DNA of 64,000 bases from Candidatus Woesearchaeota archaeon (GCA_018303185.1 JAGVYR010000001.1:8461-72460), one strand, 5' to 3'. Shown: positions 48,291 to 64,000, counted from the first letter of the stretch. Notes: generated from the letters alone by a model not told the origin. Numbers and translations are program-made.

Positions 48291-49127
48291 TTAGCTGAGT
48301 TCAACATAAAAGTAATAGGCTGTAGAGCTTGAAAAGCCGATGCCCGCATTCTCCGGAACAATCATCTGGAAGTCATACAGGTTTGAGTTGAATCCCTCGA
48401 TGTTTGCCTCAATCGGAGTCACATACACGACATTCCCGTTAGTGGTGTTTGTACCGTCATACATTATTATCTGGGTAAAGTTGGCATCATCGCTGTCTGA
48501 AAATGACTGCTCATTGTCATTCTGCCATGTCTGGAGCGTGAAGCACTGATTTTTTCCTACGACAATAGAGCCTATTGTGACTGATGAATGATTTGTCCTG
48601 TCAAAAGTTGCAGTTATGTTGTCATCCTGGTTTACATGCCCTAAGGCTGCATTCTCCCTTTCCTCTATCGTCCTGTTTGAAAGAGATGCCCTCAAAGCCC
48701 CTTCTGCAGCCCACGTGCAGTTTATCTGCGCCCATGTGACTGTTCCTGATGCCCTGGTAGAGTAAACTTCGCCTGCAATGCTCGTAAGGCTCCACTGGTA
48801 GAAAGTGTTGGTATTTGCGTCATCCAAGGCGAATGTGCCTGTCACGTTTCCGACATAAGCCTTCCATCTTGTGTTCTGCTGCCTTATGTCCATGGTCATT
48901 ATGAATATGTATCCGCCCGGGCTGCTTCCGTTGACTGTTGAGTTGACCTTGGTAGCTACCGTTGCATTTGGTGTGAGGTTTGCGGTAATATCAACAACTG
49001 GGCCGACAGGAAGTGAGTTTACGAAATGAGAAATGATGGCAAGCATTGCTACTATCGCCAGCAGGAATGCCAGCGTGTTAATTCCTCTTGCAGCTGATTT
49101 CAGCATCTGTGTGCGCATTTCAATCAC
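48291..49127 (-). CDS. secreted sequon-rich protein, FYVEL-terminus paralog family (member 1)
   Basis: Signal peptide, RWKAYVGNVTGTF and the C-terminus YYFYVELS. The start is uncertain and may be an internal Met, because of the 4-nt overlap with the upstream gene. Confidence 0.6.
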   Translation of the reverse strand: MIEMRTQMLKSAARGINTLAFLLAIVAMLAIISHFVNSLPVGPVVDITANLTPNATVATKVNSTVNGSSPGGYIFIMTMDIRQQNTRWKAYVGNVTGTFALDDANTNTFYQWSLTSIAGEVYSTRASGTVTWAQINCTWAAEGALRASLSNRTIEERENAALGHVNQDDNITATFDRTNHSSVTIGSIVVGKNQCFTLQTWQNDNEQSFSDSDDANFTQIIMYDGTNTTNGNVVYVTPIEANIEGFNSNLYDFQMIVPENAGIGFSSSTAYYFYVELS

Positions 49128-50230
49128 TTCAAAATCTCCAATTGCCTCAAGACGCTCTCCTTGAATTTGTACAGATCCTCTTTCCTTATGCGGCCTCCTG
49201 CGCTGTTCCTGTGGCCGCCGCCATTGGCACTGTCAAGGGTCTTAAGGGACCTCTCAAGAAGGTCATTAACCGCTACCTTGCTGTCCCTTCTCCTGACAGA
49301 AAGCTGTATGAAATCGCGCTTCATGTCCTGCGCTATTATGATTGTCCTGTTTGGGTATAAGCTGCTGATGGCTGAGCTTATAGCAGACTTTATCGCATAT
49401 CTTGGCTTTATGTAGTCGAAAATAAGCTCCTGCTTTGGATAGAACTCTGCAAGCTTCCTGACATTCCTTTTCCAGTAGCTTATCTCCTGCTGGATTGCCT
49501 TCCTGTATTTTGAAAGCCTTGAATTCACGACTTCCCTGCTGCTTTTCGCGCTGCAGAGTATGTCATAGCATTCACCTGCTTTCCTGAAGTCATATGCTTC
49601 TGTGAAAAAAAGCGTTTCTGTGGCTTTGCCTATTATCGTGCTGAATGCATCTTTCTTCGCCGGTATTTTATTTCGGGCAAATGTTTTTGACAGAAAATCC
49701 TTCCATGCATCCGCAGCATTGTCGCCTATGATGCCTATTGCAGCAATCCAATCTGATTCAGTTAAGTCAAAAAGCCTGCTTCCTAGGTCGAATGCGAGCT
49801 TCGCAGTGCAGTACTTTGAAGCCTCAACTTCTGAAGAAATCATCTGCGGCTTTATGTGCACAGTCTTCTTTGAATTAAGATTCCTGTAGAGCTTGTGATG
49901 GTCAAGTATCAGCATCTCTGCAAATTTTTCTGTATCCTGCACGTAGTCTGGATACTGGTCAAGGCTCAAATCTGCGATTATCAGCTTGCTTATCTTCTTT
50001 TTTTTCAGCCTGCTGAATGTCTCCTTCTTTATAGAAAGCTCGTCAGGGCCCTGGCTAAGCCTTAGGTCTATTCTTTTCCCGCGTGCTTTCTCAACAATCC
50101 TGTTGAGTATTGCCGCTGATGAAACGCCGTCAGGGTCTGTATGGTGCAGTATTGCAATCCTGTCTTCCTTTTTCAGCCCTCTGATGAAAGAGTCCAGCCT
50201 TTCGGCCAGCTCCCTGTTTTTTATTTCCAT
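49124..50230 (-). CDS. DHH/DHHA1 phosphoesterase (RecJ/NrnA-like)
   Basis: ILHHTDPDGVSSAAIL (DHH motif) and GGGHRNSAGG (DHHA1). The probable start is MEIKNREL, an internal Met of the longer ORF. Confidence 0.75.
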   Translation of the reverse strand: MEIKNRELAERLDSFIRGLKKEDRIAILHHTDPDGVSSAAILNRIVEKARGKRIDLRLSQGPDELSIKKETFSRLKKKKISKLIIADLSLDQYPDYVQDTEKFAEMLILDHHKLYRNLNSKKTVHIKPQMISSEVEASKYCTAKLAFDLGSRLFDLTESDWIAAIGIIGDNAADAWKDFLSKTFARNKIPAKKDAFSTIIGKATETLFFTEAYDFRKAGECYDILCSAKSSREVVNSRLSKYRKAIQQEISYWKRNVRKLAEFYPKQELIFDYIKPRYAIKSAISSAISSLYPNRTIIIAQDMKRDFIQLSVRRRDSKVAVNDLLERSLKTLDSANGGGHRNSAGGRIRKEDLYKFKESVLRQLEILK

Positions 50231-50234
50231 TTTC

Positions 50235-51032
50235 TTACTCCAGCTCCACGTAGAAATAGTACGGGGTAGCTGCGCCGTCATGGCCCTCGTGGCCGTTTTC
50301 AAGCACAAGCATCTGGAAGTCTGCTGTGTCAGCAGCCCCGGGCTTGTAGCTGTTTGCGTTCTGCCTTAGCAATGCTGTGAAGATGAGGCTGGAATTGTCG
50401 CTCAGCAGGAGCTCATTCCAGTTTGCGTCTGAAGCCTCATTTGTATATGAGTGGGCCAGTGAGCAGCCGTCTGCATTATTGATTGTGTTTGTTCCGACCT
50501 GAAATCCTTCAGTATCATTGTAAAAGCTTGTGAAGGTCTCATTCAGCCCGTCAGGGTCTGTGATGTTTATTCCGAAATTCATTTCAATTTGGGAGCCGTT
50601 TATGGAAGACACAATTCCTCCGGGCCTTATCGGCGTGCTTCCGTTTTGGGAAACATTTATGCAAAAGATTCTGGTCCATGTTACTGAGGAGCCATTGGAC
50701 GCATAGATTTCTCCTGAAGGATCCGGAAGGTTCCAGTCATATAGCGTAAAGTTGTCTGCATCATCCAAAGTTATTATGCCTGTTATGTTTCCAAGATAGC
50801 CTTGCCATGCCATCGTTACCCTTGTACCGTCAATTACAAGCTCAGTCACGTTGCCGGCTTCTGCCTGGACAGATATAGGATTTGTATTTGCAGGATTCCT
50901 TCCTGTGTTGGAAATGTTGATTACATTGGGCCCCTGAGGAGCAGCTAATGCCATTGATGCCAGCAAAGCAAGAACGCTTATCAGTATCAACGCCGCTGCA
51001 AGATTCCTCAAAGAGTCTTTGGTATGTTCCAT
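50235..51032 (-). CDS. secreted sequon-rich protein, FYVEL-terminus paralog family (member 2)
   Basis: Signal peptide ...ALA-AP, AWQGYLGNITGII and the C-terminus YYFYVELE. Confidence 0.6.
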   Translation of the reverse strand: MEHTKDSLRNLAAALILISVLALLASMALAAPQGPNVINISNTGRNPANTNPISVQAEAGNVTELVIDGTRVTMAWQGYLGNITGIITLDDADNFTLYDWNLPDPSGEIYASNGSSVTWTRIFCINVSQNGSTPIRPGGIVSSINGSQIEMNFGINITDPDGLNETFTSFYNDTEGFQVGTNTINNADGCSLAHSYTNEASDANWNELLLSDNSSLIFTALLRQNANSYKPGAADTADFQMLVLENGHEGHDGAATPYYFYVELE

Positions 51033-51180
51033 AAGGTTAGATAAGCGAAAAATTTATATATACTTAACGTACTTATTGTATATCAAATACGTTTAGTATG
51101 TACTTATGGAGTGAATAAATGGCTAAAAATGAGCAAGATTGAATCCATTTTATGGGATTAAGTGAGCAGACTCCTCTCGC

Positions 51181-51262
51181 TTACCCGTAGCGGCGTGCGG
51201 CGAGGCAGGGGACGCTCCCTGCGGGATGCCGAGCAGGTTTCGAAGAAACCGTCGCACCGCCA
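51181..51262 (+). repeat. GC-rich structured element R4, copy 2
   Basis: gcggcgtgcggcgaggcaggggacgctccctgcgggatgccgagcaggtttcgaagaaaccgtcgcaccgcc. It ends about 36 nt before the ATG of the PhoU-like gene and is immediately followed by AATATAAT. Confidence 0.5.
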
Positions 51263-51297
51263 ATATAATTAGACTATGAAAATACAAGAAACTTAAC

Positions 51298-52245
51298 ATG
51301 CAAACAAGAAAACTCGTGAAGGCAGGAGCAGCATCCCATACAGTCGCTCTTCCAAAGGATTGGCTGAAGAAAAACAATCTTGAGAAAGGAAATATAGTAT
51401 ATATAAGGGAGCTGGCAAGCAACGAGCTCCTTGTTTCTTCGCAGGAAGAGAGGAAGCAAAAAGAGGAGAAAGAGATAACAATAAGCCTTGAGGATAAAAA
51501 GCTCGACACGCTGCACAGGGAGCTTGCCTCTGCATACATTAACAACCATACGACTATCAATATTATAGGGAAAGAGCTCTACAGGAATGTAGTTGAGATA
51601 AGAAACATCCTCAATAATTTTGTCGCGCTTGAGATAACAGAGCAGACTTCAACAAAGATTGTTGCAAAAGACATGCTCAGCCTGAAGGAAGTCTCGATTG
51701 ACAAGACAATAAGGCGTGTTGACAACATAATAAGGTCTGTGCTGAAAGACGTGATGGAAAAAAGCGCTGACATGCAGGACAGCATCAATATGCGCGATTC
51801 CGATGTGAACAGGCTTTACTTCCTCCTCTTCAAGATTGCCAAGGGCGCTCTGATGGATCCTTCCATCTCGAAAGAAGTCGGAATTTCTTCACAGGTGGAT
51901 ATACTGTCCTATTGGTACCTCATACTAAACCTTGAAGCCATTGCAGACCATTCGAAGGATATATACAGTTCATACATCAGCCTTGGGAAGGATAAATCTT
52001 CAGAAGGCATAAATGCGGTCCTAAAGCTGATAGAAGAGTCATATCTTGAAGTCATGAAATCCTATTACGGGAATGACAAGATGGCAGCGGACAGGGTAGC
52101 ATCAAAGAGGATAGATATCTTCAACAGGTGCGAAGAGCTGTCAGAGAAGCAGGCAAGCATGCACGTCATCCGGATTGCGGAAAACCTGAAAGACATTGAG
52201 AACTCAATATGCAACATATCAAGGGTTGTGATGGATAAGGAGTAG
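51298..52245 (+). CDS. AbrB-PhoU fusion regulator (archaeal PhoU-like)
   Basis: The N-terminus TVALPKDWLKKNNLEKGNIVYI is an AbrB/SpoVT swapped hairpin. Two PhoU-like helical repeats follow. Confidence 0.75.
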   Translation: MQTRKLVKAGAASHTVALPKDWLKKNNLEKGNIVYIRELASNELLVSSQEERKQKEEKEITISLEDKKLDTLHRELASAYINNHTTINIIGKELYRNVVEIRNILNNFVALEITEQTSTKIVAKDMLSLKEVSIDKTIRRVDNIIRSVLKDVMEKSADMQDSINMRDSDVNRLYFLLFKIAKGALMDPSISKEVGISSQVDILSYWYLILNLEAIADHSKDIYSSYISLGKDKSSEGINAVLKLIEESYLEVMKSYYGNDKMAADRVASKRIDIFNRCEELSEKQASMHVIRIAENLKDIENSICNISRVVMDKE

Positions 52246-52411
52246 GAAGATGAATTCAAGATTAAGGTTAGCATCCTCTTTGCGAGGCTACGAAATTGGC
52301 ATATTAAGGGAGTTGAGGGGGACGCCCCCTACGGGGCTTCAACGATACTTCCAGAGCAACAGCAATAGCCGAGCCTGATGCTAACCGACGACAGCAGAAA
52401 AAAACAATAAA

Positions 52412-52564
52412 ACAAAACAATAACGAAAACCGAAATTATCCCTCTTAAAGGCAGAGATTTTTGCCGTTCGGTTTTCGGGATTGAAAATGCGAGGAAACCG
52501 CATTTCCGGCATGCCGAAAATCTTTGATTTTCGTGCATTCCACACTAAAGTGCAGGGGTTTTAG
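52412..52564 (+). repeat. repeat R2, copy B
   Basis: cgaaaaccgaa/ttcggttttcg inverted arms plus a 70-bp block nearly identical to 16782-16856. Confidence 0.5.
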
Positions 52565-52667
52565 GCCCAATGAAAATTCCTGCGAAATTTCCAATAACAA
52601 AAACAACAAAAGATACACCAAACAAATACAACAATAAATCAAAACAAAAAATCAAACAAATTCAAAA

Positions 52668-53732
52668 ATGCAGCAAAAAATAAAATCTCTCATTGAAAGC
52701 AGCAAGCTAGTCTTCAGGCAGTGCCAGCTAGAAACCGGCGCAATAGTAGCTGCAAACTCGGACTTGAATATCTATCCGAAGGACGTGCAGAACTACCGCT
52801 ATGTATGGCCAAGAGATGTTTCTTTCATTTTAGCAGCTGCAGATTTATTGAAAATAAAGGGAATGCACGAGCCTTTTTACAATTGGCTCATGGAACGCGC
52901 TGAAGATTTCTCAGAATCCGGGCTTCTTTTCCAGAATTACTATCCAAACGGGCCGAAGCGCTGGATGGGCTTCCAGCCTGACCAGAATGGCAGCGTGCTG
53001 TGGAGTATTCACAGTCATTGCAGAGATAATTTGGAAGATGCAAAAAAGCATGAGCCTTTGATAAGAAAACTTGCCGACGGCATTTTAAGCGTATGGAACG
53101 GCAGGCACTTCACCATAATCTCGCAGGACTTGTGGGAAGAAAACTATGCCTATCCGAAATTTGAGCAGAACCACACTTACGCGCTGGCAGCATGCTCCCA
53201 CGGCCTAAGGCTTGCAGATGAAATACTGAAAGAAGAAAAATACAGGAAAGCCTCGGAAGAGATGAAAAAAGCAATTGAAGGCTCATTTGACAGGTATTTT
53301 TTAAGGATGAATGGAAAATTGAAAGACAGGACAATAGACACTTCAATGCTTGGTCTTGCATATCCATTTCCAATATTTGACGCAGGAGACACAAGATTCA
53401 CTTCAACTCTTGACCTTATTGAAAAAAACAACACCGATTCCAACAGGGCATTCAGGTATCCCAATGATTTGTACGACGGCTTCAAGTACAGCGGCATTGA
53501 CGGAAGAAGGGGCTCGGGATTCTGGCCGCTCTTAAACTTCTGGCTTTCAATATGCTTTTCACTGAGGAATGACAGGAAAAAAGCATTAAACTACTATCTT
53601 GCTGCAGTTGATGAGGCAGAAGGCTGTTTCCCCGAGCAGATATTCACAAACGAAATCCAAAAATCCCCAAAGCCATTGGCATGGAGCCATGCAATGTTCA
53701 TATTAGCATCAGAGAAATTAGGGTTTATATAA
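52668..53732 (+). CDS. glycoside hydrolase family 15-like (glucoamylase/glucodextranase catalytic domain)
   Basis: YRYVWPRDVSF is the GH15 signature. Length is consistent with an (alpha/alpha)6 barrel. Confidence 0.7.
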   Translation: MQQKIKSLIESSKLVFRQCQLETGAIVAANSDLNIYPKDVQNYRYVWPRDVSFILAAADLLKIKGMHEPFYNWLMERAEDFSESGLLFQNYYPNGPKRWMGFQPDQNGSVLWSIHSHCRDNLEDAKKHEPLIRKLADGILSVWNGRHFTIISQDLWEENYAYPKFEQNHTYALAACSHGLRLADEILKEEKYRKASEEMKKAIEGSFDRYFLRMNGKLKDRTIDTSMLGLAYPFPIFDAGDTRFTSTLDLIEKNNTDSNRAFRYPNDLYDGFKYSGIDGRRGSGFWPLLNFWLSICFSLRNDRKKALNYYLAAVDEAEGCFPEQIFTNEIQKSPKPLAWSHAMFILASEKLGFI

Positions 53733-53740
53733 AATGGATA

Positions 53741-53832
53741 AAATAGTTTTGGCGTGGCGTGCTACGAGCCGGGGGACGCCCCATACGGGGTGGCGAGTAG
53801 GGCTTTTGCGAGGCAAAAGACCGTAGCACCGC
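53741..53832 (+). repeat. GC-rich structured element R4, copy 3 (divergent)
   Basis: ggcgtg...gggggacgccccatacgggg...ggcttttgcgaggcaaaagacc...gcaccgcc. An AAAAATATAAAAATATTA box follows directly and the GDE gene starts about 30 nt later. Confidence 0.45.
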
Positions 53833-53862
53833 CTAAAAATATAAAAATATTATCAAGCAACA

Positions 53863-55719
53863 ATGGTAAAGGCAATCCACCAGTTAAGCGGCGAAAGGAT
53901 AGAGAAAGACGTCGAAAAGGCAGATTTTATTCTCACAAGCGGCAATGGAAGCTACCTTTACCTTGGAGATTATCCTGAAAGCCGCTATCAGGGCTTTTTC
54001 ATATATGAGAACTCGGAGATGCTCAAGGTTCTTGAGCTGATATCCGTAAAGGGCGCAGCCCCGATAGACACTGTGAAAAACCTCTTCTATTCTGTCCAGA
54101 GGAAAAGAGGCATGCTGATAGAAACCTTCTTCCTTCCAAGAGGCAAAAGCTCCATGATGTACAGCCTCAACGAAAAGAGAGAGATAGAGATTTTCCTCGA
54201 TTTCAAAAAATCCTATGACAACAGGGTATGGGGCCTCTCCTACAGCACCTATGAGCAGGATGGCTGCATCATAATAGAATTCACAAAAGCGACAGACAGC
54301 AGGGAGGATGCCTCTTCAGGGCAGGAGGAATACAAGGCCTATCTTGCTATAAAGTCAGACACCGGAAAATTCTCATTAGCGGGAAATTGGATTAAGCATG
54401 ACTATAATCTGGATAAAACAAGAGGGTCAATACCGAATTCAAGGTTTGTATGCCATGCACTTAATATGGAAGGAAGCAAATTTTTTTTCTCAGCCTCGTT
54501 CAGCAAAGAAAAGGCAATAGGGGAATGCATCAGCATCTTTCAGAACAATGAATCAATATTAAAGGGAGATGAGCAGTCATTAGGGAGGATAATAGCTTCA
54601 AAAGATATAAATAGAATAAAAGACAGGGAAAAAAGGTACGCTTACATCTCATCGCTGCTCTCCCTAAGCTCATTGGTTGTAAAAGAAGAAAAGAGCGCAG
54701 GAATTTTTGCCGGGCTGCCGTGGTTTTTCCAGTTCTGGGCAAGGGATGCCGCAATATCGTGCCGCGGCTTGAAAAGCATAGACCTAAAATTGTCAAAAAA
54801 AATCCTTTTTGACATGCTTGGCACCATGAATAATGAGGGGCGCGTGCTTAACATATACAGCCTTTCGGATAAGGATGATTCAAATCAGGCAGCCGGCATA
54901 GCAAGCACCGCAGACGCGACAGGATGGATTTTCCTCAGGCTGTACTGGCTCTTCAGGGAAGGGAACCTCAATATTATAGAAAGGGCAAAGGCAAAAAAGC
55001 TGCTGCTTGATGCTATAAGGCTTTCCGAAGGCAGGATAAATGAGGAAGGGTTTGAAGCCAACAGGGAAAAAGAGACATGGATGGATACTTCAGATCCCGC
55101 AGGCAAAGACAGGAGGGAAGGCATAAGGATAGAGATTCAGGCTTTAAGGCTGATGATATACCGCTTCGCTTATGAATTGACAGGCATGCAGAAATTCCTT
55201 AAGTGGGAGGAGCTCATGAAAGAGAGGGTTTTGTCCGCATTCTATAAGGACGGGATGCTTGCAGACGGAGTTGGGGATTTTACAGTAAGGCCGAACATTT
55301 TCATAGCATATTACGCCTATCCGTGGCTGCTTGATGAAAGCCAGTGGAAGCTTGTTTTTGATTTGGCAATAAAAAAGCTGTGGCTTGACTGGGGCGGCTT
55401 TGCCACAATAGAGAAAGGCCATCCTCTTTTTCAGTGGAATTACACAGGGGAAAGCAATGCAAGCTACCACAGGGGAGACTCATGGTTTTGGGTAAATTGC
55501 CTTGCGGCTTTGTGCATGCTTAGGCTTGACAGCAAGAAATACTACAGGAATATACTTAAGGTAATGGAAGCGGGCACGCAGGAAATTCTCTGGATGGGCG
55601 CAATATCGCACCATTCCGAGGTAAGCTCTGCATCCTCGTTAAAGAGCGAGGGATGCATGATGCAGGCATGGAGCAGCGCCATGTTCCTGGAGCTTTTGCA
55701 GGAATTTTTTTCAGTCTAG
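53863..55719 (+). CDS. glycogen debranching enzyme (amylo-alpha-1,6-glucosidase, GH133/GDE_C)
   Basis: GLPWFFQFWARDAAIS and ETWMDT motifs, 618 aa. Confidence 0.8.
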   Translation: MVKAIHQLSGERIEKDVEKADFILTSGNGSYLYLGDYPESRYQGFFIYENSEMLKVLELISVKGAAPIDTVKNLFYSVQRKRGMLIETFFLPRGKSSMMYSLNEKREIEIFLDFKKSYDNRVWGLSYSTYEQDGCIIIEFTKATDSREDASSGQEEYKAYLAIKSDTGKFSLAGNWIKHDYNLDKTRGSIPNSRFVCHALNMEGSKFFFSASFSKEKAIGECISIFQNNESILKGDEQSLGRIIASKDINRIKDREKRYAYISSLLSLSSLVVKEEKSAGIFAGLPWFFQFWARDAAISCRGLKSIDLKLSKKILFDMLGTMNNEGRVLNIYSLSDKDDSNQAAGIASTADATGWIFLRLYWLFREGNLNIIERAKAKKLLLDAIRLSEGRINEEGFEANREKETWMDTSDPAGKDRREGIRIEIQALRLMIYRFAYELTGMQKFLKWEELMKERVLSAFYKDGMLADGVGDFTVRPNIFIAYYAYPWLLDESQWKLVFDLAIKKLWLDWGGFATIEKGHPLFQWNYTGESNASYHRGDSWFWVNCLAALCMLRLDSKKYYRNILKVMEAGTQEILWMGAISHHSEVSSASSLKSEGCMMQAWSSAMFLELLQEFFSV

Positions 55720-56882: not shown

Positions 56883-56887
56883 CTAAA

Positions 56888-57208
56888 TCACCTGCAAAAG
56901 CATGTGCACTCATTGCACCCTATCTCAGCCTCTTCGAAATCAATTTTGCTGTAGCCCATATCCTCTGTAGAGCACTGCGACCTGCACCTTGACCTGCATT
57001 CATCCTGTGTCTCGATTGTGTGCGTAACCACATTTATGAAGCGCCCGCACTTGTCCTCAATCTCAAATTTCTTTTGCTCCTTTAACGGCAGAAGCAGGAA
57101 CAGTATAGCTATAACTGCAAGAGCCACTATTGCAAGAAACTTTTTATCCATTCTGCTGATAAAACCCTTAAGCATTCTTCCCATCCTTTTCAAATGCCAG
57201 ATATTCAT
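56888..57208 (-). CDS. small membrane-anchored Cys-rich protein
   Basis: A TM helix, then CGRF...CRSRCRSQC...CNECTCFC. Confidence 0.4.
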   Translation of the reverse strand: MNIWHLKRMGRMLKGFISRMDKKFLAIVALAVIAILFLLLPLKEQKKFEIEDKCGRFINVVTHTIETQDECRSRCRSQCSTEDMGYSKIDFEEAEIGCNECTCFCR

Positions 57209-58373
57209 CCTTTACAATCTTTTTTACGCTGTGAAGGCCGTGGTAGGCATCCTGTAATCCCTTATTTAAAGGTTTCCCCATGAGAAGATCATGCCTTAGG
57301 TGGTATACTGACAGCCTTATTATTCCGAATGAGATTACTATAAGTGAGAGAATCATCAGCGCTGCCAGTATATTGCCTGAAATCCCAAGCTCTGAAAGGT
57401 CTCCGTAGGATATCAGAAGCGACAATCCAAATATGATAATTGAAAGAAGCGTTGTAAACTCGCTTCCCGCTATAAGGAATACTGCCCCAACAACAAATGT
57501 TGCCATGAGGCCGCCAAGCGTTATGACCATGTCATTGTAGTATGAACTGCATATTATCTCTGTGTGCGGGCTTCCGAGCACATCATATATGACCGCCTTT
57601 GTATGCTCGCATCCGTAATACTGGGCTGCGATAGCATGCCCAAACTCATGCAAAGCTATGGTGCTGAGCACCATAAACCCCATGACTGATACAAGGAATA
57701 TGGCAAACCTGAAAAAGAGGGTTACGAGATGGAGTGTGCTGCTGCTTTTCCTTATTTTTAGGTCCAGGCTATGGATTCCAAGGTTTGAGACATCAAGATA
57801 AAATGACCTTACCACAAGAAACATTGCGATATTGGGCAAAAGCCACAGCAGCCTGAAAGACTCAAATAAAGTGTATGACAGCGCAATATAGAGCATGAGC
57901 ATTCCCGCATAAAACAGGCCGAAGAACCCCGCTCTTCTCAGGTGGTAATTGGAGTAAAATGCAAGGTCCACAAATGCAATAACCAGCAGAAGCGATGATA
58001 TGGCCATTGAGAAAATAAAGAAGGATTTAATGCTGAAATTTACAGCAAATATTGCAGCCATGAAGAGAAAAAGGAGGTATATGAGGTTCTTTTTTGCGGC
58101 TATCTTGTAAGATATATAGATGATTATCACGCTAGTAACAACACTTAGCACAAGGTTCATCAGGGCAAAGTCGGAGCCTGATGGCGCCAGTATTCCGAAA
58201 GCCCAGAGAAAGTTGATTACCCCCATTAAAAAATAAAAGATGCCCATGACGGCAAGGGCCCTGCTCATCTTGAATTCGGCGCTGCCCCTGCTATATAGGC
58301 TGTAAAATGAATAGAATGACAATCCTGCCACAGCTGCAAAGCTCGCTCCGTTTAAAAAAAACAGCACATCCAT
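57168..58373 (-). CDS. polytopic membrane protein with HExxH zinc-metalloprotease motif
   Basis: About 10 TM helices. ALHEFGHAIAAQYYG (HExxH) lies in the C-terminal third. Confidence 0.5.
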   Translation of the reverse strand: MDVLFFLNGASFAAVAGLSFYSFYSLYSRGSAEFKMSRALAVMGIFYFLMGVINFLWAFGILAPSGSDFALMNLVLSVVTSVIIIYISYKIAAKKNLIYLLFLFMAAIFAVNFSIKSFFIFSMAISSLLLVIAFVDLAFYSNYHLRRAGFFGLFYAGMLMLYIALSYTLFESFRLLWLLPNIAMFLVVRSFYLDVSNLGIHSLDLKIRKSSSTLHLVTLFFRFAIFLVSVMGFMVLSTIALHEFGHAIAAQYYGCEHTKAVIYDVLGSPHTEIICSSYYNDMVITLGGLMATFVVGAVFLIAGSEFTTLLSIIIFGLSLLISYGDLSELGISGNILAALMILSLIVISFGIIRLSVYHLRHDLLMGKPLNKGLQDAYHGLHSVKKIVKDEYLAFEKDGKNA

Positions 58374-58417: not shown

Positions 58418-58966
58418 CTAGCCGCACTTAAAGCTGTTCAGCATGCTGGTGTACATTGCAAGATTTGCAGGCTCTGCTTCGGGTGAAGTCACCAATACCA
58501 CCACTATATGGCTGTCGCCGCACACAGTGCCTGACACAAAAGAGTCGATTCCCTCCCCGGCAAACTTAATCGCATAAGTGTACCATTCTTCCTGCCCGAA
58601 TTTCCTTACGCCGACTGACTTCGCTGCCTCATCTTCTGAAGTGCCTTCATTGCTGCCGGAAAAGTCAGACAGCGCCTGCTCAACTCCCAGCTCATTCAGG
58701 GGCTTGCCATTTGTGGGATTGACGGTGAATATCACAAGATTGTCGCTCTTCCTGATTGCCCAGTTATTTGGCAAATCCTTGGTTATCTGCTCCCAATCAG
58801 CAGGATAGCTAAAGGTAAAGCCGTATTCTTCGCTCTTAAAAGCGCCCGCTTCGGAGCCTTCATTTTCTGGAGAGCAGGATACAGCCAGAAGCATTATTGC
58901 AGCCAATGCAGGAAACTTAAAGCCCATTGCAAAAATCTGATTGCTGGTGCTTATAAAGTTTTCCAC
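58418..58966 (-). CDS. hypothetical lipoprotein
   Basis: Lipobox LLAVSCSP. Confidence 0.45.
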   Translation of the reverse strand: MENFISTSNQIFAMGFKFPALAAIMLLAVSCSPENEGSEAGAFKSEEYGFTFSYPADWEQITKDLPNNWAIRKSDNLVIFTVNPTNGKPLNELGVEQALSDFSGSNEGTSEDEAAKSVGVRKFGQEEWYTYAIKFAGEGIDSFVSGTVCGDSHIVVVLVTSPEAEPANLAMYTSMLNSFKCG

Positions 58967-59211
58967 AAAACGGTTAAGTAAAATATTATGCTTTTTTTAT
59001 CTTTCCTCTGCCAGCAATAATGGCGGCTGTCGTCGCTCCGCTCCTCGTCGGACATCCCGTAGGGAGCGTCCCCTGTCCGACCAGCGCCATCGTTGGCTTA
59101 TATTTTTGTCACTTAATCTTACTTAACTCCACAAAACCAAAAGGTTTATATACTGATGATACTACTATTAAGTAATAAATATATTACTTAATAATACGGG
59201 GGGATGGTTGC

Positions 59212-59835
59212 TTGAATAAGGCATGGACAGCGCTGGTTATAGTATTTCTGCTCGGATGGGCCTCATCGGAAGTATATAGCACTATATTCGGAGATGGCAA
59301 AGAAAGCGCTTCTGCCATGCCGGGATATTACTCATTTGAAGGCTTGCCCCAAGATGAATCAGATGGCATGCAGCAGATAGAAGCGCCTAAATCAAATGAT
59401 GACGCAAATATCAGAAGGTTTGACCTTCTTGAGAAGCTTCTTGCCCAGGAAAGCGAAGATGACAGGGAAAAACTGTCCCCTTATGACTGGATAAAGCAGG
59501 ACCAGATTCAGGTATATAACAACATGGTCATAATCAGGCTGAAAAATCCACAATGGGCGCGCTTCACAGACACCAAATCGATGGACCCTGTTATAGATTC
59601 CTCAAGCCATGCCTTGGAGATAGTGCCGGAAAGCGAAGAAGAGGTGCATGAAGGGGACATTGTCGCCTATGAGTCTGTATACAAGAAGGGAATCATAACT
59701 CACCGTGTCGCCAAGATTGGAAAAGACTCTGAAGGATGGTATGCAGTAATGAAAGGCGACAATAATCCGGGCAATGATCCGGGCAGGGTAAGGTTCAGCC
59801 AGATAAGAAGGGTCGTGGTTGCGGTTATTTATTAG
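59212..59835 (+). CDS. signal peptidase I, Sec11/S26B (archaeal-eukaryal) type
   Basis: TDTKSMDPVIDS (catalytic Ser box), GDIVAY, ITHRV (catalytic His) and KGDNNPGNDPG. There is an unusually long region of about 90 aa between the TM anchor and the Ser box. Confidence 0.7.
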   Translation: MNKAWTALVIVFLLGWASSEVYSTIFGDGKESASAMPGYYSFEGLPQDESDGMQQIEAPKSNDDANIRRFDLLEKLLAQESEDDREKLSPYDWIKQDQIQVYNNMVIIRLKNPQWARFTDTKSMDPVIDSSSHALEIVPESEEEVHEGDIVAYESVYKKGIITHRVAKIGKDSEGWYAVMKGDNNPGNDPGRVRFSQIRRVVVAVIY

Positions 59836-60052
59836 GGTTTTTATATTATTTTCTTAGTCTTATAACTTTGTTATTGTTGATTTATTGATTTTTATTGATT
59901 TTTTATGTTGTTTTATTGTACAGCAAAACTGCGTTTTATGTATTGTTTCTATTGATTTATTGTTTTTTATGTATTGTTTTTATTGAATTTTTTATTGGTT
60001 AAAGTTTTATTTTAAAAAGAGCCATAAATAAAAAACAAATAAAAAGGCTTGC

Positions 60053-61042
60053 CTAATTGAAGTCCTGCACAGCCCCGAAAACGATTGTGCCGTTGCATAT
60101 TCCCCCTGCTCCAAGCGGAATCTGCAGCCTCCAGAAAGTTGAGTTTGAGCTGTTGCCGTAAGTGCGGCTGAGTGTCCTCTTCGGGATGGTTTTGTCAACC
60201 ATCATAGTCTTGTTTGTAAGGTTAACCATGGTTGCGAAGGGCGTTGAATTGATTGTATCATACCTCAGGCTGCCTATGCTTATGTTGGCAGTAGACGCAG
60301 TGGGGTCGCATATCATTGAAAGGTTTTGCCCTACGCTCTCGTTCGTGCCTCCATATCCTCTTACAGTGAAATTCATTGGCACATTTCCAGCGTTTGTCAC
60401 GTTTTCCCTTATCGGCTTTGACGTCTGCGTGACTGAAAGATTGCCGAAATCAACAACAAGGTTCTCAACCTCTATTCCGAGAACCTGATTGAATGTCGCG
60501 GCCGCTGATTGGTTTGTGCTCGATAGGGCTATGTCAGAAACCGTCATGTTGCAGGACCAGCTACCGGGATTTACATAGTATTGCACCGCAAACTGGCACG
60601 TGCAAGTCCCGTTGAGATTGTTTGAATCAGGAATTGGGCTGCACGAAGACACGCCGCAGCTCCTGTTTGTATAATGCGTGTTGTTGTCATCCGCAGCAAT
60701 GGAGGAAGTGCCGGACATGAAAAGAGTTGCATTTATGCTTACCAAATCATCAAAGCCGTTGTCATCCTGGAAAGAGCCGTTGCACAAAACTGTAGTCACG
60801 TTGCCTGCCTGCAGGTCAACATTTCCGGCAGAATCGAGGGGATCAACTATCTGGACAAGATACAGGTAAGGAGGGGCATTAGAGACATTTACCCTCGCAA
60901 GAACAGTTGCGTTGGTGGTATTTCCGGCTAAAACATCAACAGCAACAAATGTTATTCCTATAAATGAGAAAGACAGCAGAAAAAGCGCCATCAGCGCGTA
61001 ATATGCAAGTTCCAGGCGTTTTCGCTTTATTCTTATTATCAT
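60053..61042 (-). CDS. secreted/surface sequon-rich protein
   Basis: 329 aa with a signal anchor and more than 25 N-x-S/T sequons. Confidence 0.5.
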   Translation of the reverse strand: MIIRIKRKRLELAYYALMALFLLSFSFIGITFVAVDVLAGNTTNATVLARVNVSNAPPYLYLVQIVDPLDSAGNVDLQAGNVTTVLCNGSFQDDNGFDDLVSINATLFMSGTSSIAADDNNTHYTNRSCGVSSCSPIPDSNNLNGTCTCQFAVQYYVNPGSWSCNMTVSDIALSSTNQSAAATFNQVLGIEVENLVVDFGNLSVTQTSKPIRENVTNAGNVPMNFTVRGYGGTNESVGQNLSMICDPTASTANISIGSLRYDTINSTPFATMVNLTNKTMMVDKTIPKRTLSRTYGNSSNSTFWRLQIPLGAGGICNGTIVFGAVQDFN

Positions 61043-61101
61043 TCGCGCTCGTTATCATTCGCATTAACAGCCAAGGCGGCCTGCTTGTGCCATTTCGGAA
61101 G

Positions 61102-61326
61102 TCATTTGAGCATCATTATTATCTGTGCCCCTTCCCTCTCCCAGAAATTCCTGCATTTCTGCTCCATGCACATCAAAAGCACGCTGGACTCAGTTTCCCT
61201 GGCGGCAAGCTTCTGCCCGCATTCCTCGCAAAGTTCCTCTTTCATTGCCATGTTGACCTCTCTCCCTGTTTTTTCCTTGTTCATGATTATTCTTGCATTA
61301 TCCTTATGCCATCTTGCCCTCTGCAT
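61102..61326 (-). CDS. small hypothetical zinc-ribbon-like protein
   Basis: CEECGQK...C...C. A weak call. Confidence 0.25.
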   Translation of the reverse strand: MQRARWHKDNARIIMNKEKTGREVNMAMKEELCEECGQKLAARETESSVLLMCMEQKCRNFWEREGAQIIMMLK

Positions 61327-61353
61327 ACCCTGTTTTGGCTCTGCTTATTGCGC

Positions 61354-62094
61354 CTATGTCAGCTCGACATAGAACCAGTAGCTTGTCGGGACCGCAGTGT
61401 CTCCGTCCTCTCCTACGACCATCTGGAAATCCGCAGAATGGCCCTGGAATCCTGTCGCATCCTGCTCAAGCAGCGCAGCGTAAATGATCTTGGTGCTGTT
61501 GTCCGTAAGTATTGTTTCATTGTACCTTAACTGGTCAGCTGCATCATTCACGTTGAGCGAGACCGCCTTACAGCCGCTGTTTTCGTCTATTGTCGCGCTT
61601 CCGACATCAAAACTTCCGGTGAATGTCAGGTTGAACGTCTCGTTCACTCCATCCACATCATTTGCATCTGCCCCGAGGCTTGCTTCAAGCTGCCCCAGAG
61701 TGACATTCTGCTCTGCTGCTGTTTTAGTGAAGTTAAAGCATCCCACATTATTCCATGTAGGCGCTGTTGAGCTGTTGACAGCGTAAATTTCTCCCTGCGG
61801 GCTCATGTCCGCCCACTGATACAGGCTGTTTCCCGCAGCATCCTCAAGCGATATTGTCCCTGTGACATTGCCGAAGAAGCCCTGCCATCTTTGGGTTGCC
61901 CTGGAAGCCGTTATTGAAAGTGATGTTACGTTTCCTGCCTGTGCCTCCTGCTGTATTGCGCTCTGGGCCTGTGCTGTCTGGCTGTCACCTCTTGTAATTG
62001 AATCCGGCCCTATGGGCTGGGCAAATGCAGCTGCACTCAGGGCGATTGCTAAAACTAATAATTCAAGCACTAGCACTTTCGCTCTCAGTCGCAT
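61354..62094 (-). CDS. secreted sequon-rich protein, FYVEL-terminus paralog family (member 3)
   Basis: Signal peptide AFA-QP, QRWQGFFGNVTGTI and the C-terminus YWFYVELT. Confidence 0.6.
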   Translation of the reverse strand: MRLRAKVLVLELLVLAIALSAAAFAQPIGPDSITRGDSQTAQAQSAIQQEAQAGNVTSLSITASRATQRWQGFFGNVTGTISLEDAAGNSLYQWADMSPQGEIYAVNSSTAPTWNNVGCFNFTKTAAEQNVTLGQLEASLGADANDVDGVNETFNLTFTGSFDVGSATIDENSGCKAVSLNVNDAADQLRYNETILTDNSTKIIYAALLEQDATGFQGHSADFQMVVGEDGDTAVPTSYWFYVELT

Positions 62095-62183
62095 TTGCTC
62101 TTTTCCCGCTGCTTCCAGTCTTTGTGTCTTATCTTGTTATCAAAAATTAAAAAATAAAATTAAAAAATCAAAAGGCTGCCTGC

Positions 62184-62933
62184 CTAGGACAGCTCTACGT
62201 AAAACCAATAAGGTGTAGATGCTACAATATCTCCGTCTTCTCCTACAATCATCTCGAAGTCTGCAGGATGGTTCTGGAATCCTGTCGCGCTCTGCTCCAG
62301 TATTGCGGTGTAGATGACGCTGTGCCTTGTCCCGTTGTCTATCAATATTGTCTCGTTGAAGCGGGCAGCGTCATAGGCATCATTCACGTTCAGTGAAACA
62401 TGCTTGCAGTCGCTTGTCAGGGTGACACTTCCGATCGTTATTGGCTGCTTAGTTGTATGGTTGAAGGTTTCATTGACTCCGTCCTCATCCAGTGCGCTCA
62501 TTCCAAGATTAGATTCCAAGGCACTTAATGTAAGTCTCTGCGCTGTGCTTGACTTAGTGTGGTTAAAACATGTCACATTGCTCCATGCCGGAGCTGTCGA
62601 GCTGTTGACTGCGTATATCTCTCCTTGGGGGACGTCATCTGCCCATTGGTAGAGGCTGTTTCCCGCGGCATCATCAAGTGCTATTGTCCCTGTGACATTG
62701 CCGAAGAAGCCCTGCCATCTTTGTGAGGCCCTTGTGCCGCTTACCAGCAGGCCCGTCACGTTTCCCCCTTCAGCCTCCTGCTGGACGCCGCCAGGTGCCG
62801 TCGCCGTCTGGCTGTCACCCCTTGTTATGCTGCTGGGGCCGATTGGATTGGACTGCGCGTACACGCCAGCGCTAAAAACAACCAATGCTATCAGGAAGAC
62901 AGCAATTTTCGCAAATTTCATTTCCATTTTCAT
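62184..62933 (-). CDS. secreted sequon-rich protein, FYVEL-terminus paralog family (member 4)
   Basis: Signal peptide VYA-QS, QRWQGFFGNVTGTI and the C-terminus YWFYVELS. About 70% identical to member 3. Confidence 0.6.
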   Translation of the reverse strand: MKMEMKFAKIAVFLIALVVFSAGVYAQSNPIGPSSITRGDSQTATAPGGVQQEAEGGNVTGLLVSGTRASQRWQGFFGNVTGTIALDDAAGNSLYQWADDVPQGEIYAVNSSTAPAWSNVTCFNHTKSSTAQRLTLSALESNLGMSALDEDGVNETFNHTTKQPITIGSVTLTSDCKHVSLNVNDAYDAARFNETILIDNGTRHSVIYTAILEQSATGFQNHPADFEMIVGEDGDIVASTPYWFYVELS

Positions 62934-63384
62934 TGTTCACCTCTCGTCGGAATTTTACTGTATTTTATTAGTATGAAATGCGGGAACGGACAGCATCATA
63001 ATTCACCAGGTATCGAGGCGTCAGATGGTTATGACCATGAATCCATTCCCGCACTAGCAGGCAAGAAAAAGAATCGGTATCGAGGCGTTCCTTTCTGCTT
63101 GCCCGTATAAGCTTAACCTGATATCACCTCTTGCTGTCCGGATATTGTTGCAGGTTCCATTTTTGTATCCAGTTCTTTGATTTAGCACCTTAGTGTAGGT
63201 TTTTGTATCCTAATTGTTCTAATAATGTAACTTATATTTAAATATTTCGTTTATTACTGTAGTTTTTTATATATTTTAGTTAATATAGTTCATTAATTAA
63301 TTAATCATTTAATTAGTATTTATAAAAAATTTCAGACGGGAAAATAGAATTCAGGAAAGATGCCCTTAAATTGCCCTAAACCCC

Positions 63385-64000
63385 TTAAGAAAGTTCCACA
63401 AAAAAATAATAGTTCCTGACAGTGCCCTGGATAGTTCCATTCACGCCCACTATCATCTGGAAATCCGTTGAATGGCCTTGGAATCCCGTCTGGTCCTGTT
63501 CGAGGATAGATGTAAAGACTATGCTGGTGTTGTCGGTAAGAATAATCTCCTTGAAGCGCTGCGTCTGGTACCCGTTATTGTCATATAAAGTCGCCATGGA
63601 GCAGTTGTCGGCATTGTTTATGGTTATATCCCCGACGGAAAAATATGATCCGTCTGTTCCGTAAGTCTGGTTGAAAGTCGCGTTTACGCTGTCATCGTCA
63701 GCCTCTTCCGACGGCATTCCCAATCCTATAAACCTGTTAAGCGCTGTAAGGTTGTATTTTTCCTCAAGGTAGTCTGCTGTAAAATTGACGCAGAATACTC
63801 TGGTCCATGTGACCGGAGTTCCGTTGGACGCATAAATCTCCCCGCTGGGGTTTGCAAGCCCCCAGTCATAAAGTGCATTGCCTGCAGCGTCCTCAAGCGT
63901 AATGCCGCCTGAAATATTTCCAGTAAATCCCTGCCATCTCTTGGTTATGCGCTGCGAGCTGACATCAAGCGAAGTTACATTGCCGCCTTCCGCTTCCTGC
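63385..64000 (-). CDS. secreted protein, FYVEL-terminus paralog family (member 5), 5' end outside window
   Basis: The frame stays open to the window edge (...KRWQGFTGNISGGITLEDAAGNALYDW...). The C-terminus is YYFFVELS. Confidence 0.5.
   Translation of the reverse strand, partial: QEAEGGNVTSLDVSSQRITKRWQGFTGNISGGITLEDAAGNALYDWGLANPSGEIYASNGTPVTWTRVFCVNFTADYLEEKYNLTALNRFIGLGMPSEEADDDSVNATFNQTYGTDGSYFSVGDITINNADNCSMATLYDNNGYQTQRFKEIILTDNTSIVFTSILEQDQTGFQGHSTDFQMIVGVNGTIQGTVRNYYFFVELS

Follow-up and report, generated by a model that had tools for sequence, protein, structure and literature searches.

The window analyzed here, a 64,000-nucleotide stretch from a Candidatus Woesearchaeota archaeon, carries five genes for related secreted proteins, all on the minus strand. 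"FAM" is used below as the label for the family formed by these five paralogs and their relatives. Type A of this family includes the proteins encoded at positions 61354-62094 (246 aa; HMM E value of 3.5e-90; the reference member for AlphaFold2), 62184-62933 (249 aa), and 50235-51032 (265 aa; the first gene of a FAM-DHH-FAM operon, with a product identical to record P0003, titled Candidatus Nanoarchaeia archaeon), as well as 63385-64000 (204 aa in frame), which runs off the window at its 5′ end, so that ~50 N-terminal residues of a full length of ~255 lie beyond it. The type B paralog at 48291-49127 (278 aa) shows the motif variants WKAYVGN and SPGGYIF. The five proteins align over their whole length with pairwise identities of 29-63% and 31 invariant columns. 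A six-frame scan of the window with the family HMM matched exactly these five, at E values of 1e-76 to 1e-105, and the resemblance is therefore not due to chance. ORFs, full-length alignment, and family HMM agree with the preliminary description of this DNA, in which five paralogous secreted proteins were placed at these positions. The core motif proposed there, W(Q/K)G(F/Y)xGN(V/I)(T/S)G, is present provided that its third position is read as G or A (WKAYVGNVTG in 48291-49127).

Distribution, export, and neighborhood of the FAM family

The family comprises 1,341 clusters at 50% identity. Every named record derives from a Woese-, Pace-, or Nanoarchaeota MAG, in keeping with the lineage specificity proposed previously; many further records are titled "uncultured Methanosarcinales," a doubtful label. 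Across 83 loci, one to six paralogs of the two subtypes are found per locus, with type B accounting for 94 of 432 sequences and occurring in 41 loci. Searches of Pfam, NCBIfam, and PDB sequences returned no family match, and PDB profile searches with FAM alignments gave noise only, with nothing at an E value of ≤10. Likewise, comparison of the FAM model with PDB and BFVD folds using Foldseek yielded no credible match; the best, to glycan-binding jelly-roll capsid proteins, were weak (E value of 0.46). The family thus matches no characterized domain. Weak matches to Lectin_legB (E value of 0.0049) and CBM_6 were confined to single members (1 of 80 each).

Each complete paralog has one N-terminal hydrophobic segment (KD19 of 2.2-2.7) and none past residue 45, where KD19 peaks at 0.73, as expected from the earlier statement that a TM anchor is lacking. 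In the 61354-62094 protein, a Sec-type signal peptide is predicted at residues 1-25 (62020-62094, minus strand; KD19 of 2.59 at residues 7-25) and modeled by AlphaFold2 as a helix spanning residues 2-23. Cleavage sites assigned by eye in the four complete paralogs are AFA-Q (the 61354-62094 protein), VYA-Q, ALA-A, and VNS-L, with the hyphen marking the cut; the Sec signal peptides reported earlier are therefore supported by hydropathy, and AxA-like sites by the first three, VNS-L not being of the AxA type. In the AlphaFold2 model the mature protein is all-beta; it is acidic (pI of 4.05-4.34) and has two invariant Cys residues. The richness in N-glycosylation sequons noted previously is confirmed: density is 3.6-4.9 per 100 aa, compared to 1.0 in other window proteins, and frequency is two to three times the compositional expectation. 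No lipobox Cys was found within the signal peptides or directly behind them, the sole Cys residues being the two in the core. A C-terminal sorting motif with TM helix and basic tail was not found in FAM proteins, nor were sortase, archaeosortase, lipobox, LPXTG, or PGF-type features found with them. By inspection, a type IV pilin (class III signal and retained hydrophobic helix) was rejected, as the hydrophobic segment lies ahead of an AxA-type site, with the invariant PxGP coming next, and the mature protein is modeled as all-beta.

Two partners of FAM are the commonest: 47 of 83 loci encode an ArsR-type regulator at a distance of 71 bp, and 52 encode a 329-aa glycoprotein. In the window the latter is encoded at 60053-61042 (minus strand); besides its signal peptide it has a beta-like N-terminal segment that is conserved and a tandem pair of Ig-like domains, with 23 sequons and 8 Cys residues. 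Its AlphaFold2 model (pLDDT of 91.4) gave CfaE tip adhesin (6k73_D; E value of 6.4e-5) as the best Foldseek match, along with AgI/II and MSCRAMM adhesins. TM-anchored secreted proteins stand beside FAM in 30 and 18 loci. A DHH/DHHA1 (RecJ/NrnA-like) cytoplasmic protein (49124-50308, minus strand; Pfam DHH, 2.8e-8, and DHHA1, 8.6e-8) is encoded between two FAM genes, with its longest ORF overlapping both; the gene has the same position in 5 loci, at a median distance of 6 bp. An archaeal-type signal peptidase I (SipW-like) lies at 59212-59835 on the plus strand (TIGR02228, E value of 5e-11, and SipW, 6e-6, both below cutoff). The interleaving of FAM genes with DHH, signal peptidase, and sequon-rich proteins is thus as first described, but for the signal peptidase the association is weak (7 of 83 loci). 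Also recurrent are a polytopic membrane protein (57168-58373, minus strand; ~10 TM segments, an HEFGH motif, and weak Peptidase_M50B/DUF3267 matches; 18 loci) and a small Cys-rich protein of 106 aa with a single TM segment at residues 24-42 (56888-57208, minus strand; 17 loci).

Core fold, C-terminal strand, and N-terminal extension

The AlphaFold2 monomer of the 61354-62094 protein (pLDDT of 85.4; pTM of 0.79) contains a beta-rich globular core of 11 strands at residues 70-246 (61357-61887, minus strand; pLDDT of 85-96), including the invariant pair C119 and C175 and the Asp/Glu/Asn-rich invariant motifs LDDA, GEIYA, DxDGxNETF, LTDN, and DFQM. A likeness of the stretch ILDDANLKDLY to Bacillus subtilis TasA was rejected, as this stretch is not conserved within the TasA family. 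The core finishes in the strand YWFYVEL (residues 239-245; 61360-61380, minus strand), with a single residue between it and the stop codon. All five window paralogs stop one residue past F(Y/F)VEL, as described before. Over 432 sequences the conserved C terminus persists (Y, 98%; Y, 90%; F, 96%; E, 95%; L, 86%), but the exact single trailing residue loosens to one to three, and E is sometimes D.

In the model, residues 240-245 form a confident strand within the monomer core (pLDDT of ~87). Mean-field direct coupling analysis (mfDCA) of 284 type-A sequences, which recovered hairpins, couples this strand to the GEIYA strand at residues 102-106 (pairs 102-244, 104-240, and 106-242); mfDCA of the full family is dominated by the A/B subtype split. 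In four proteins fused to an ATPase (see below), the C-terminal strand is internal rather than terminal. Placement in the modeled core and within these fusions argues against the sorting or anchoring signal suggested in the preliminary description. On the basis of the model, it is likelier that the strand belongs to the core or the acceptor side than that it is donated.

A better candidate for a donor strand is the N-terminal extension, a feature absent from the preliminary description. In the 61354-62094 protein it spans residues 26-69 (61888-62019, minus strand) and includes PIGP (62005-62016) and AGNVTSLSI (61912-61938); the family-wide motif is PxGP followed by AGNVTxLxI, with P conserved at 97% and G at 99%. 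Conservation of the extension strand (0.60) is comparable to that of the core (0.52), yet the extension falls within the lowest-confidence blocks of an otherwise confident monomer (pLDDT of 56-76) and was left unplaced by AlphaFold2. In the same type-A mfDCA, it covaries with residues 221-238 and 103, the high-ranking pairs being S58-A221, I61-Q224, E50-S238, A53-G231, and I61-I103; mfDCA is noisy, and covariation does not distinguish intra- from intersubunit contacts. S58-A221 and I61-Q224 share an equal offset, i.e., a parallel register. Three database fusions (P0179, P0243, and P0238) hold the extension motif internally, suggesting that a free N terminus is dispensable in some cases.

A possible surface fiber and its alternatives

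FAM also occurs within larger proteins. In 25 giant CARDB/CBM/Ig proteins of 365-3213 aa (Pfam CARDB and CBM96 matched), the FAM core begins directly behind a CARDB-type domain and finishes the protein; jackhmmer started from one of these converges on 198 small FAM members. The domain stands at the extreme end of 198 small and 25 giant proteins, with one to three residues trailing. The extension motif is found in 142 of 179 small members but in none of the 25 giants. Giants have a cleavable-looking signal peptide, and in the seven whose C termini were inspected the FAM strand motif closes the chain, with no TM anchor behind it. The third architecture is rare (4 loci): a signal or TM segment, extension, FAM, CarboxypepD_reg, a TM segment, and a HerA-like ATPase. 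The window itself encodes a related membrane HerA/FtsK/CedD-like ATPase at 32632-34950 (minus strand; Pfam DUF87, 8.6e-11, and HerA_C, 3.7e-7), laid out as a signal peptide, an extracellular beta domain, a TM segment, and a cytoplasmic ATPase. Its NCBIfam matches (CedD, TraD, and HerA) are weak, all translocase matches being far under family cutoffs (CedD, 32 bits against a 600-bit cutoff). Orthologs occur in 10 loci, in addition to the 4 fused forms from other genomes, which bear FAM at the outer end. Family, distribution, motifs, the three architectures, neighborhood, and predicted folds are direct results of these analyses.

From these we infer, with an even chance of being correct, that FAM is the polymerizing module of a DPANN surface fiber whose subunits link by a donor-strand-like exchange, with adhesins at its tip and membrane proteins at its base. 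The preliminary suggestion of a cell-surface or filament subunit family is retained in this sense: the domain architectures are best read this way, with polymerization, strand exchange, polarity, and the roles of the partners as proposals. The polymer would be extracellular, heavily N-glycosylated, most likely a thin fiber, and specific to Nanoarchaeota (Woesearchaeales/Pacearchaeales). Small paralogs would leave the cell through Sec, lose their signal peptide to signal peptidase I, and acquire glycans, and would then join head to tail, the extension (PxGP ... AGNVTxLxI) docking as a beta strand on the core of the next subunit, adjacent to its DFQMxV (penultimate) and YYFYVEL (C-terminal) strands. 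Major subunits may be of type A and minor ones of type B, and the two-Ig-domain 329-aa partner may be an accessory or adaptor subunit. As giants end in a FAM core with no extension, they could accept a strand but not donate one, which would place these CARDB/CBM96/Ig proteins at the distal end as adhesins. Conversely, extension and FAM on a stalk with a TM helix and HerA/FtsK-like ATPase would mark the membrane-proximal end, formed in most genomes by other TM-anchored partners.

Several observations favor such a fiber: multiple paralogs of two subtypes; acidic, secreted, sequon-rich, anchorless proteins; an extension as conserved as the core but poorly placed in the monomer model; the absence of this extension from all 25 giants and the fusion of FAM to a membrane ATPase; the high-ranking extension-core pairs in mfDCA; a neighborhood like that of a surface structure, with regulator, adhesin-like partner, and TM-anchored proteins; and the organization of known archaeal donor-strand fibers (see below). 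Against it, the AlphaFold2 core looks complete and confident, and sequence, profile, and Foldseek searches gave no link to solved donor-strand filaments; the noise and ambiguity of the covariation, the internal extension motif of three database fusions, and the rarity of the ATPase fusions (4 loci) also weigh against it.

A two-dimensional surface layer or sheath, with cores packed laterally, giants plugged in, and TM-anchored partners as tethers, is unlikely but accommodates small subunits, C-terminal FAM in giants, and outer FAM on membrane proteins equally well. FAM is very acidic and densely glycosylated, as are archaeal S-layer proteins, it is widespread across the lineage, and TM-anchored secreted partners are available (30 and 18 loci). 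However, FAM subunits are small (~23 kDa), with 2-6 diverged paralogs and a separable conserved N-terminal strand, a combination commoner in pilus systems than in known archaeal S-layers, and the dedicated adjoining regulator in 47 of 83 loci suggests conditional expression rather than a constitutive envelope.

Quite unlikely is a secreted lectin-like beta-sandwich that binds carbohydrate or host, does not polymerize, and has paralogs of diversified specificity. The beta-rich fold, invariant Asp/Glu/Asn residues potentially able to bind a metal or sugar, the weak Lectin_legB and CBM_6 matches, and the likewise weak resemblance to glycan-binding capsid jelly-rolls point this way, and DPANN archaea need host-attachment proteins. 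The lectin-type matches are, however, at noise level. If FAM bound the ligand, nothing would keep giants with cleavable-looking signal peptides and anchorless C termini on the cell, and neither the conserved extension and its selective absence from giants nor FAM as the outermost module of a membrane ATPase would be explained.

We consider it very unlikely that the FAM polymer forms the outer portion of an ATP-driven apparatus peculiar to DPANN archaea, in which a fiber or tube seated on the transmembrane HerA/FtsK/CedD-like translocase, with giant adhesin tips, acts as a contact-dependent conduit for uptake of DNA or other macromolecules from the host cell; were this so, both the class of archaeal surface machine and the subunit fold would be new.

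A function of the invariant C terminus itself, as a strand donated as in type V pili or as a sorting or anchoring signal read by an enzyme, is highly improbable. This motif is the most conserved stretch (86-98%), it is terminal in small and giant proteins alike, and its internal position in ATPase fusions fits an acceptor-only base subunit. Nonetheless, the strand lies confidently within the monomer core and is coupled to the GEIYA strand of its own domain, the signal peptidase is seldom linked, and neither a sortase or archaeosortase nor a lipobox, LPXTG, or PGF-type feature accompanies it; moreover, the variable number of trailing residues and the E/D exchange argue against chemistry on a precisely placed carboxylate. 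There is only a slender chance that FAM belongs, as a highly diverged branch, to the TasA superfamily (TasA, AbpA, AbpX, CanA, thread, and Tafi) and shares its jelly-roll ancestry as well as its mechanism. Against this, hhalign comparison of profiles for FAM (80 sequences) and TasA/Peptidase_M73 (41 sequences) yielded a probability of 0.9%, PF12389 was unmatched in the five paralogs and in 80 members at an E value of ≤10, PDB sequences gave no match at that cutoff, and no TasA, AbpA, CanA, or thread chain was among the Foldseek matches listed.

DPANN archaea are tiny symbionts that live attached to other cells through contact molecules that are mostly uncharacterized. FAM is a large, Nanoarchaeota-confined, unannotated family with no detectable known fold, and its reuse in three settings (free subunits, giant adhesin ends, and the outer end of an ATPase) points to a modular surface assembly. 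If the proposed fiber is real, FAM would be a new structural family among donor-strand extracellular filaments and offer a handle on DPANN-host attachment.

Comparison with known systems

Known archaeal donor-strand fibers follow the logic proposed for FAM: their glycosylated subunits carry a Sec signal and donate an N-terminal strand, and they are accompanied by minor and tip subunits and by regulators (PMC9245690, PMC9715654, bioRxiv 10.64898/2026.01.04.697558). Archaeal and bacterial filaments of the TasA superfamily, among them AbpA bundling pili, CanA cannulae, and Saci_0406 threads, and, by prediction, FAM share Sec export, cleavage by signal peptidase I, a size of ~20-25 kDa, a beta-rich structure, acidity, glycosylation, and a strand-like extension conserved at the N terminus. 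Their loci are also alike in holding minor paralogs of the subunit, transcription factors, and adhesin-like proteins, sometimes with a signal peptidase and c-di-GMP enzymes. In contrast, FAM shows no detectable homology to this superfamily and is Nanoarchaeota restricted, and its strand exchange is putative. The use of FAM as the C terminus of giant proteins or as the outer module of a HerA-like membrane ATPase has no counterpart among the TasA families as described in the papers cited above.

By their Walker A/B regions, the FAM-fused ATPase of four genomes and the 32632-34950 protein belong to the CedD/TraD/VirB4/HerA/FtsK superfamily. Unlike Ced and conjugation translocases, FAM-linked ATPases carry a long extracellular beta-domain stalk, and no other Ced or T4SS component was identified.

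Type V pili (FimA/Mfa1, Bacteroidota) are, to our knowledge, the only well-known system exchanging C-terminal strands between subunits, the reading prompted by the invariant C terminus of FAM. Pilins of this type are lipoproteins and become active once a protease removes an N-terminal strand; FAM, unlike these, has no lipobox Cys, and its C-terminal strand is modeled in the core.

In chaperone-usher pili (type 1, P, and CFA/I fimbriae), subunits carry an N-terminal extension, the tip adhesin combines a receptor-binding part with an extension-less pilin domain, and the last strand of the pilin fold borders the donor-strand groove (cf. PMC9715654). FAM differs in several respects: its host is archaeal and has no outer membrane, its proteins are predicted to be N-glycosylated, its core of ~180 residues did not match Ig-like pilins in Foldseek, and no PapD-like chaperone or usher was matched by Pfam or NCBIfam among the window proteins scanned. 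The tip-adhesin architecture is nevertheless matched, by analogy rather than homology, by the 25 FAM giants, and the best fold match of the 329-aa partner, CfaE, is itself the tip adhesin of a chaperone-usher pilus, CFA/I.

A lineage-restricted family of secreted proteins

The five paralogs of FAM, the secreted protein family under study, lie on the minus strand of the window at 48291-49127, 50235-51032, 61354-62094, 62184-62933, and 63385->64000, confirming the ORFs of the preliminary description. The first belongs to subtype B and the other four to subtype A; residue numbers refer to the 246-residue protein at 61354-62094, in which an N-terminal extension (residues 26-69) links the signal peptide to the core (residues 70-246). 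The fifth ORF leaves the end of the window, with 204 residues in frame that align from approximately residue 50 of full-length homologs. No completion of this ORF was obtained: the one other contig with this region stops 314 nt past the fourth gene, and the matches included no identical full-length protein. The five sequences align end to end with pairwise identities of 29 to 63% and 31 invariant columns, including W70, G75-N76, G79, LDDA, GEIYA, two cysteines, D222-F223, and the C-terminal Y..F.VEL. The core motif W(Q/K)G(F/Y)xGN is present as first described, except that its third position may also be alanine. When a family HMM was run on the six-frame translation of the window, only these five paralogs were retrieved (E values of 1e-76 to 1e-105).

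Hydropathy shows one hydrophobic segment per complete paralog, at the N-terminus, and none elsewhere. Sec signal peptides with AxA sites had been proposed throughout; by eye, the sites AFA↓Q, VYA↓Q, and ALA↓A conform, while VNS↓L does not. The mature proteins are acidic (pI 4.05 to 4.34) and carry 9 to 12 N-x-S/T sequons each, or 3.6 to 4.9 per 100 residues versus 1.0 in the other proteins of the window. Sequon density and hydropathy together bear out their description as sequon-rich proteins without a transmembrane (TM) anchor.

A profile search of 5.8 billion proteins gave at least 988 matches, none with a Pfam domain; the few named ones belong to Candidatus Woesearchaeota, Nanoarchaeia, or archaeon GW2011_AR3. 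Searched exhaustively with an HMM, 1.84 billion cluster representatives yielded 1,341 proteins at E≤0.001. Scanning GTDB species, each represented by one genome, gave 445 FAM-encoding stretches; where the record titles are informative, they point to metagenome-assembled genomes (MAGs) of Woese-, Pace-, or Nanoarchaeota. Many FAM-bearing MAG records (loci L007, L010, L013, and others) are titled "uncultured Methanosarcinales archaeon (binchicken ...)"; this is probably a submission label rather than true taxonomy, because the FAM clusters there resemble those of Woese- and Nanoarchaeota MAGs. Matches to characterized domains were at noise level when the five paralogs were scanned with Pfam and NCBIfam and in PDB sequence-profile searches (factor VIII and OXA-1 at E≥0.07), and Pfam scans of 80 members taken singly at E≤10 gave nothing consistent. 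No description of FAM was found in the full-text literature on DPANN donor strands or on DPANN HerA, surface proteins, or adhesins. FAM is a real, large, uncharacterized, and lineage-restricted family whose architectures are informative.

Terminal strands and domain architectures

The conserved C-terminus persists in larger alignments, with motif positions 86 to 98% conserved across 432 unique sequences. All 120 best matches end in Y[YWF][FL][YFW][VIALM]E[LIM] plus one residue; among 205 members from 83 loci, the rule loosens to allow E to be replaced by D (rarely Q) and 1 to 3 trailing residues (ELGS, EISG, and ELSAT). A sorting or anchoring role for this terminus did not hold up. The AlphaFold2 model places the strand within the monomer core, covarying pairs (E102-E244, Y104-W240, and V106-Y242) link it to the GEIYA strand of that domain, and in four larger proteins it is internal, running on as YYFYTDPxDxCPxGG. 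For these reasons, the C-terminal strand behaves as a core or edge strand rather than a detachable signal.

In small members of the family, the stretch from the cleavage site to W70 holds two further conserved islands with a variable linker between them. The more N-terminal one, PxGP (P 97%), lies 0 to 3 residues from the predicted mature N-terminus, and the other is the beta-strand-like AxAGNVTxLxI (SPGGYIFxL in type B; G 99%). Conservation of this strand island exceeds the core average (0.60 versus 0.52), despite which the island sits in the lowest-confidence block of the model. Mean-field direct coupling analysis (mfDCA) of all 432 sequences mostly reflected the split between types A and B and was rerun on the 284 type-A sequences only (Meff 207), giving a usable but noisy result in which several hairpins reappear and GEIYA pairs with the C-terminal strand. 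Four extension-core pairs rank in its top 25 (S58-A221, E50-S238, I61-I103, and A53-G231), and the lower-ranked pair I61-Q224 has the offset of S58-A221, as expected of a parallel strand pair. These couplings, which are suggestive only, point to an extension strand that docks at a defined site beside the last two strands, and covariation is blind to whether the partner core belongs to the same or the next molecule.

Three architectures carry the FAM core. Small secreted proteins, with a signal peptide, extension, and core, number 1 to 6 per locus and include both types, which occur together in 41 of the 83 loci; none of the proteins encoded there contains FAM twice. Three database proteins (P0179, P0243, and P0238) bear extra N-terminal domains and retain the extension motif internally. 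The second architecture comprises 25 giant proteins (365 to 3213 residues) that have a divergent FAM core at the C-terminal end and finish in x[FLY]Y.[ED][LI]x. Because a jackhmmer search begun from one of these domains converges on 198 small members, the homology is real. In all 25, the W..Y.GN.(T/S) strand opens the core a few residues past a CARDB-type domain (Pfam assigned CBM96 and CARDB to one such protein), and the extension motif is present in none of them versus 142 of 179 small members. Since 25 natural proteins have a core without its own extension, the docking site can, by inference, exist unfilled in cis, the situation that donor-strand systems exploit.

The third architecture is formed by four proteins of approximately 1215 to 1272 residues (L060 3631-7275, L068 5158-8841, L066 4892-8710, and L073 4103-7750). 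The FAM core, preceded by an N-terminal signal/TM segment and an AG(S/G)(I/Y)TE extension strand, leads into CarboxypepD_reg repeats, and a TM helix near residue 680 connects these to a P-loop domain on the cytoplasmic side. This domain passes the Pfam cutoff for DUF87/HerA, with weak matches to CedD, TraD, and VirB4. The window encodes a FAM-less form of the same ATPase (32632-34950, minus strand), a membrane protein that joins a beta-domain stalk outside the cell to a HerA/FtsK/CedD-like ATPase in the cytoplasm, and 10 further loci have this HerA-like ATPase no more than 10 kb from FAM genes. The outer-end FAM domain in four genomes is a gene fusion that ties the family to a translocase-type ATPase.

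We propose that assembly is polar and proceeds by strand exchange. FAM subunits would leave the cell through Sec, lose their signal peptides to signal peptidase I, and receive N-glycans; they would then join head to tail, the extension strand of each docking next to the DFQMxV and YYFYVEL strands of the following subunit. At the distal end, giant FAM-terminated adhesins would accept strands, and the proximal end would consist of extension-bearing FAM domains on membrane stalks, in some genomes the stalk of the HerA-like ATPase. The mirror image of this model, with the C-terminal strand as donor, accounts for the same architectures, but it agrees less well with the AlphaFold2 model and the covariation than does donation of the N-terminal extension.

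Gene neighborhood and other genes of the window

All ORFs from the 83 FAM loci were clustered. A 329-residue glycoprotein family (window 60053-61042) is present in 52 loci and an ArsR-type winged-helix regulator of ~205 residues (Pfam HTH_5, weak Lrs14 match) in 47, at a median distance of 71 bp. The regulator gene stands immediately upstream of FAM genes (L008 9012-9662, L004 9333-10004, and 45 more loci). It is absent from the window and may, for this locus, lie beyond position 64000. Further families are a second HTH protein (25 loci), two of secreted proteins with a C-terminal TM anchor (30 and 18), a 106-residue TM protein (17; window 56888-57208), a secreted "GWNLI" repeat protein (16), and two of ~67-residue cytoplasmic proteins (10 and 8). 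Genes of these last two are interleaved 0 to 4 bp from FAM genes (L005 3924-4127 and 5879-6085, L036 9750-9950, and L016 3982-4185); beyond a faint RimP-like match they fall in no family, and no equivalent was seen in the window. A polytopic protein with a HEFGH zincin-like motif, ~10 TM segments, and weak Peptidase_M50B/DUF3267 matches (18 loci; window 57168-58373, minus strand) may be a processing protease. The signal peptidase was discarded as a dedicated, defining partner, occurring in only 7 of 83 loci.

AlphaFold2 models the 329-residue partner as two tandem Ig-like domains (pLDDT 91.4), preceded by a conserved N-terminal segment, TVIARVNVTN, of low model confidence. Foldseek matched the model to two-domain bacterial adhesins, best to the CFA/I fimbrial tip adhesin CfaE (6k73_D, E 6.4e-5), and further to AgI/II C-domains and the MSCRAMMs SdrG, ClfA, and Bbp. 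Such modeled likeness is generic to Ig tandems, yet it fits a role in surface adhesion.

The FAM genes are accompanied by a 516-residue PocR-GAF-GGDEF protein (46159-47709, minus strand; Pfam GGDEF E 1.5e-43), encoded 582 nt from the first of them. The GGEEF is intact and an RxxD site (RDAD) is present in this protein, a diguanylate cyclase of a DPANN archaeon; c-di-GMP signaling counts as rare among archaea. Between two of the secreted-protein genes, in one apparent operon, lies a gene for a cytoplasmic DHH/DHHA1 (RecJ/NrnA-like) protein (49124-50308, minus strand) that, with the adjoining GGDEF gene, could form a candidate cyclic-dinucleotide turnover module; of the 83 loci, DHH proteins occur in 5, and the GGDEF cyclase is conserved in 3 related ones. 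Glycogen-metabolism genes (cytoplasmic GH15 glucoamylase-like protein, amylo-alpha-1,6-glucosidase, and glycogen synthase) and a PhoU-like gene (51298-55719 and 44164-45948, plus strand) part two groups of FAM genes, a synteny common only to close relatives (L001 and L006). Just downstream of the HerA-like ATPase gene, three tandem KaiC-like ATPase genes (29887-32219, minus strand; 261, 232, and 228 residues; Pfam KaiC E 1e-49 to 1e-61) adjoin a SpoIIM-like membrane protein gene (28571-29413). On the other side, a CBS-domain gene (34937-36475) separates the ATPase from a 1176-residue surface protein (36483-40013, minus strand). This protein, which has no FAM domain, combines a signal peptide and domains of the PKD and CarboxypepD_reg kinds with a TM helix near residue 1015, and its cytoplasmic tail is a coiled coil.

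Comparison with known surface filaments

Most likely, FAM represents a new structural family of surface-fiber subunits. Members of the TasA superfamily, both archaeal and bacterial, are exported by Sec, carry a donor strand at the N-terminus, and are glycosylated; minor and tip subunits and regulators accompany them, and some loci add a signal peptidase and c-di-GMP enzymes (PMC9245690, PMC9715654, bioRxiv 10.64898/2026.01.04.697558). Homology to TasA was suggested by a short "GY..N..I(L)DDAN..LY" likeness to the Bacillus subtilis protein, which vanished against a 41-sequence TasA profile (0.9% probability) and was rejected as chance. The Pfam scans of 80 members, the PDB profile searches, and the Foldseek matches listed likewise gave no link to TasA. 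A viral capsid reading, raised by weak polyomavirus VP1 matches, was dismissed on a TM score of ~0.1, no significant BFVD match, and the chromosomal synteny of FAM with glycogen-metabolism genes. Sortase, lipobox, and class III signal features are all absent, as are chaperone-usher components among the window proteins scanned. The giant FAM proteins nonetheless share with chaperone-usher pili a tip design of an adhesin plus an extension-less pilin domain, and FAM shares with the TasA superfamily the logic of a donor-strand filament. We accordingly file FAM, by analogy, as a family that would work like a donor-strand filament subunit while belonging to no named family.
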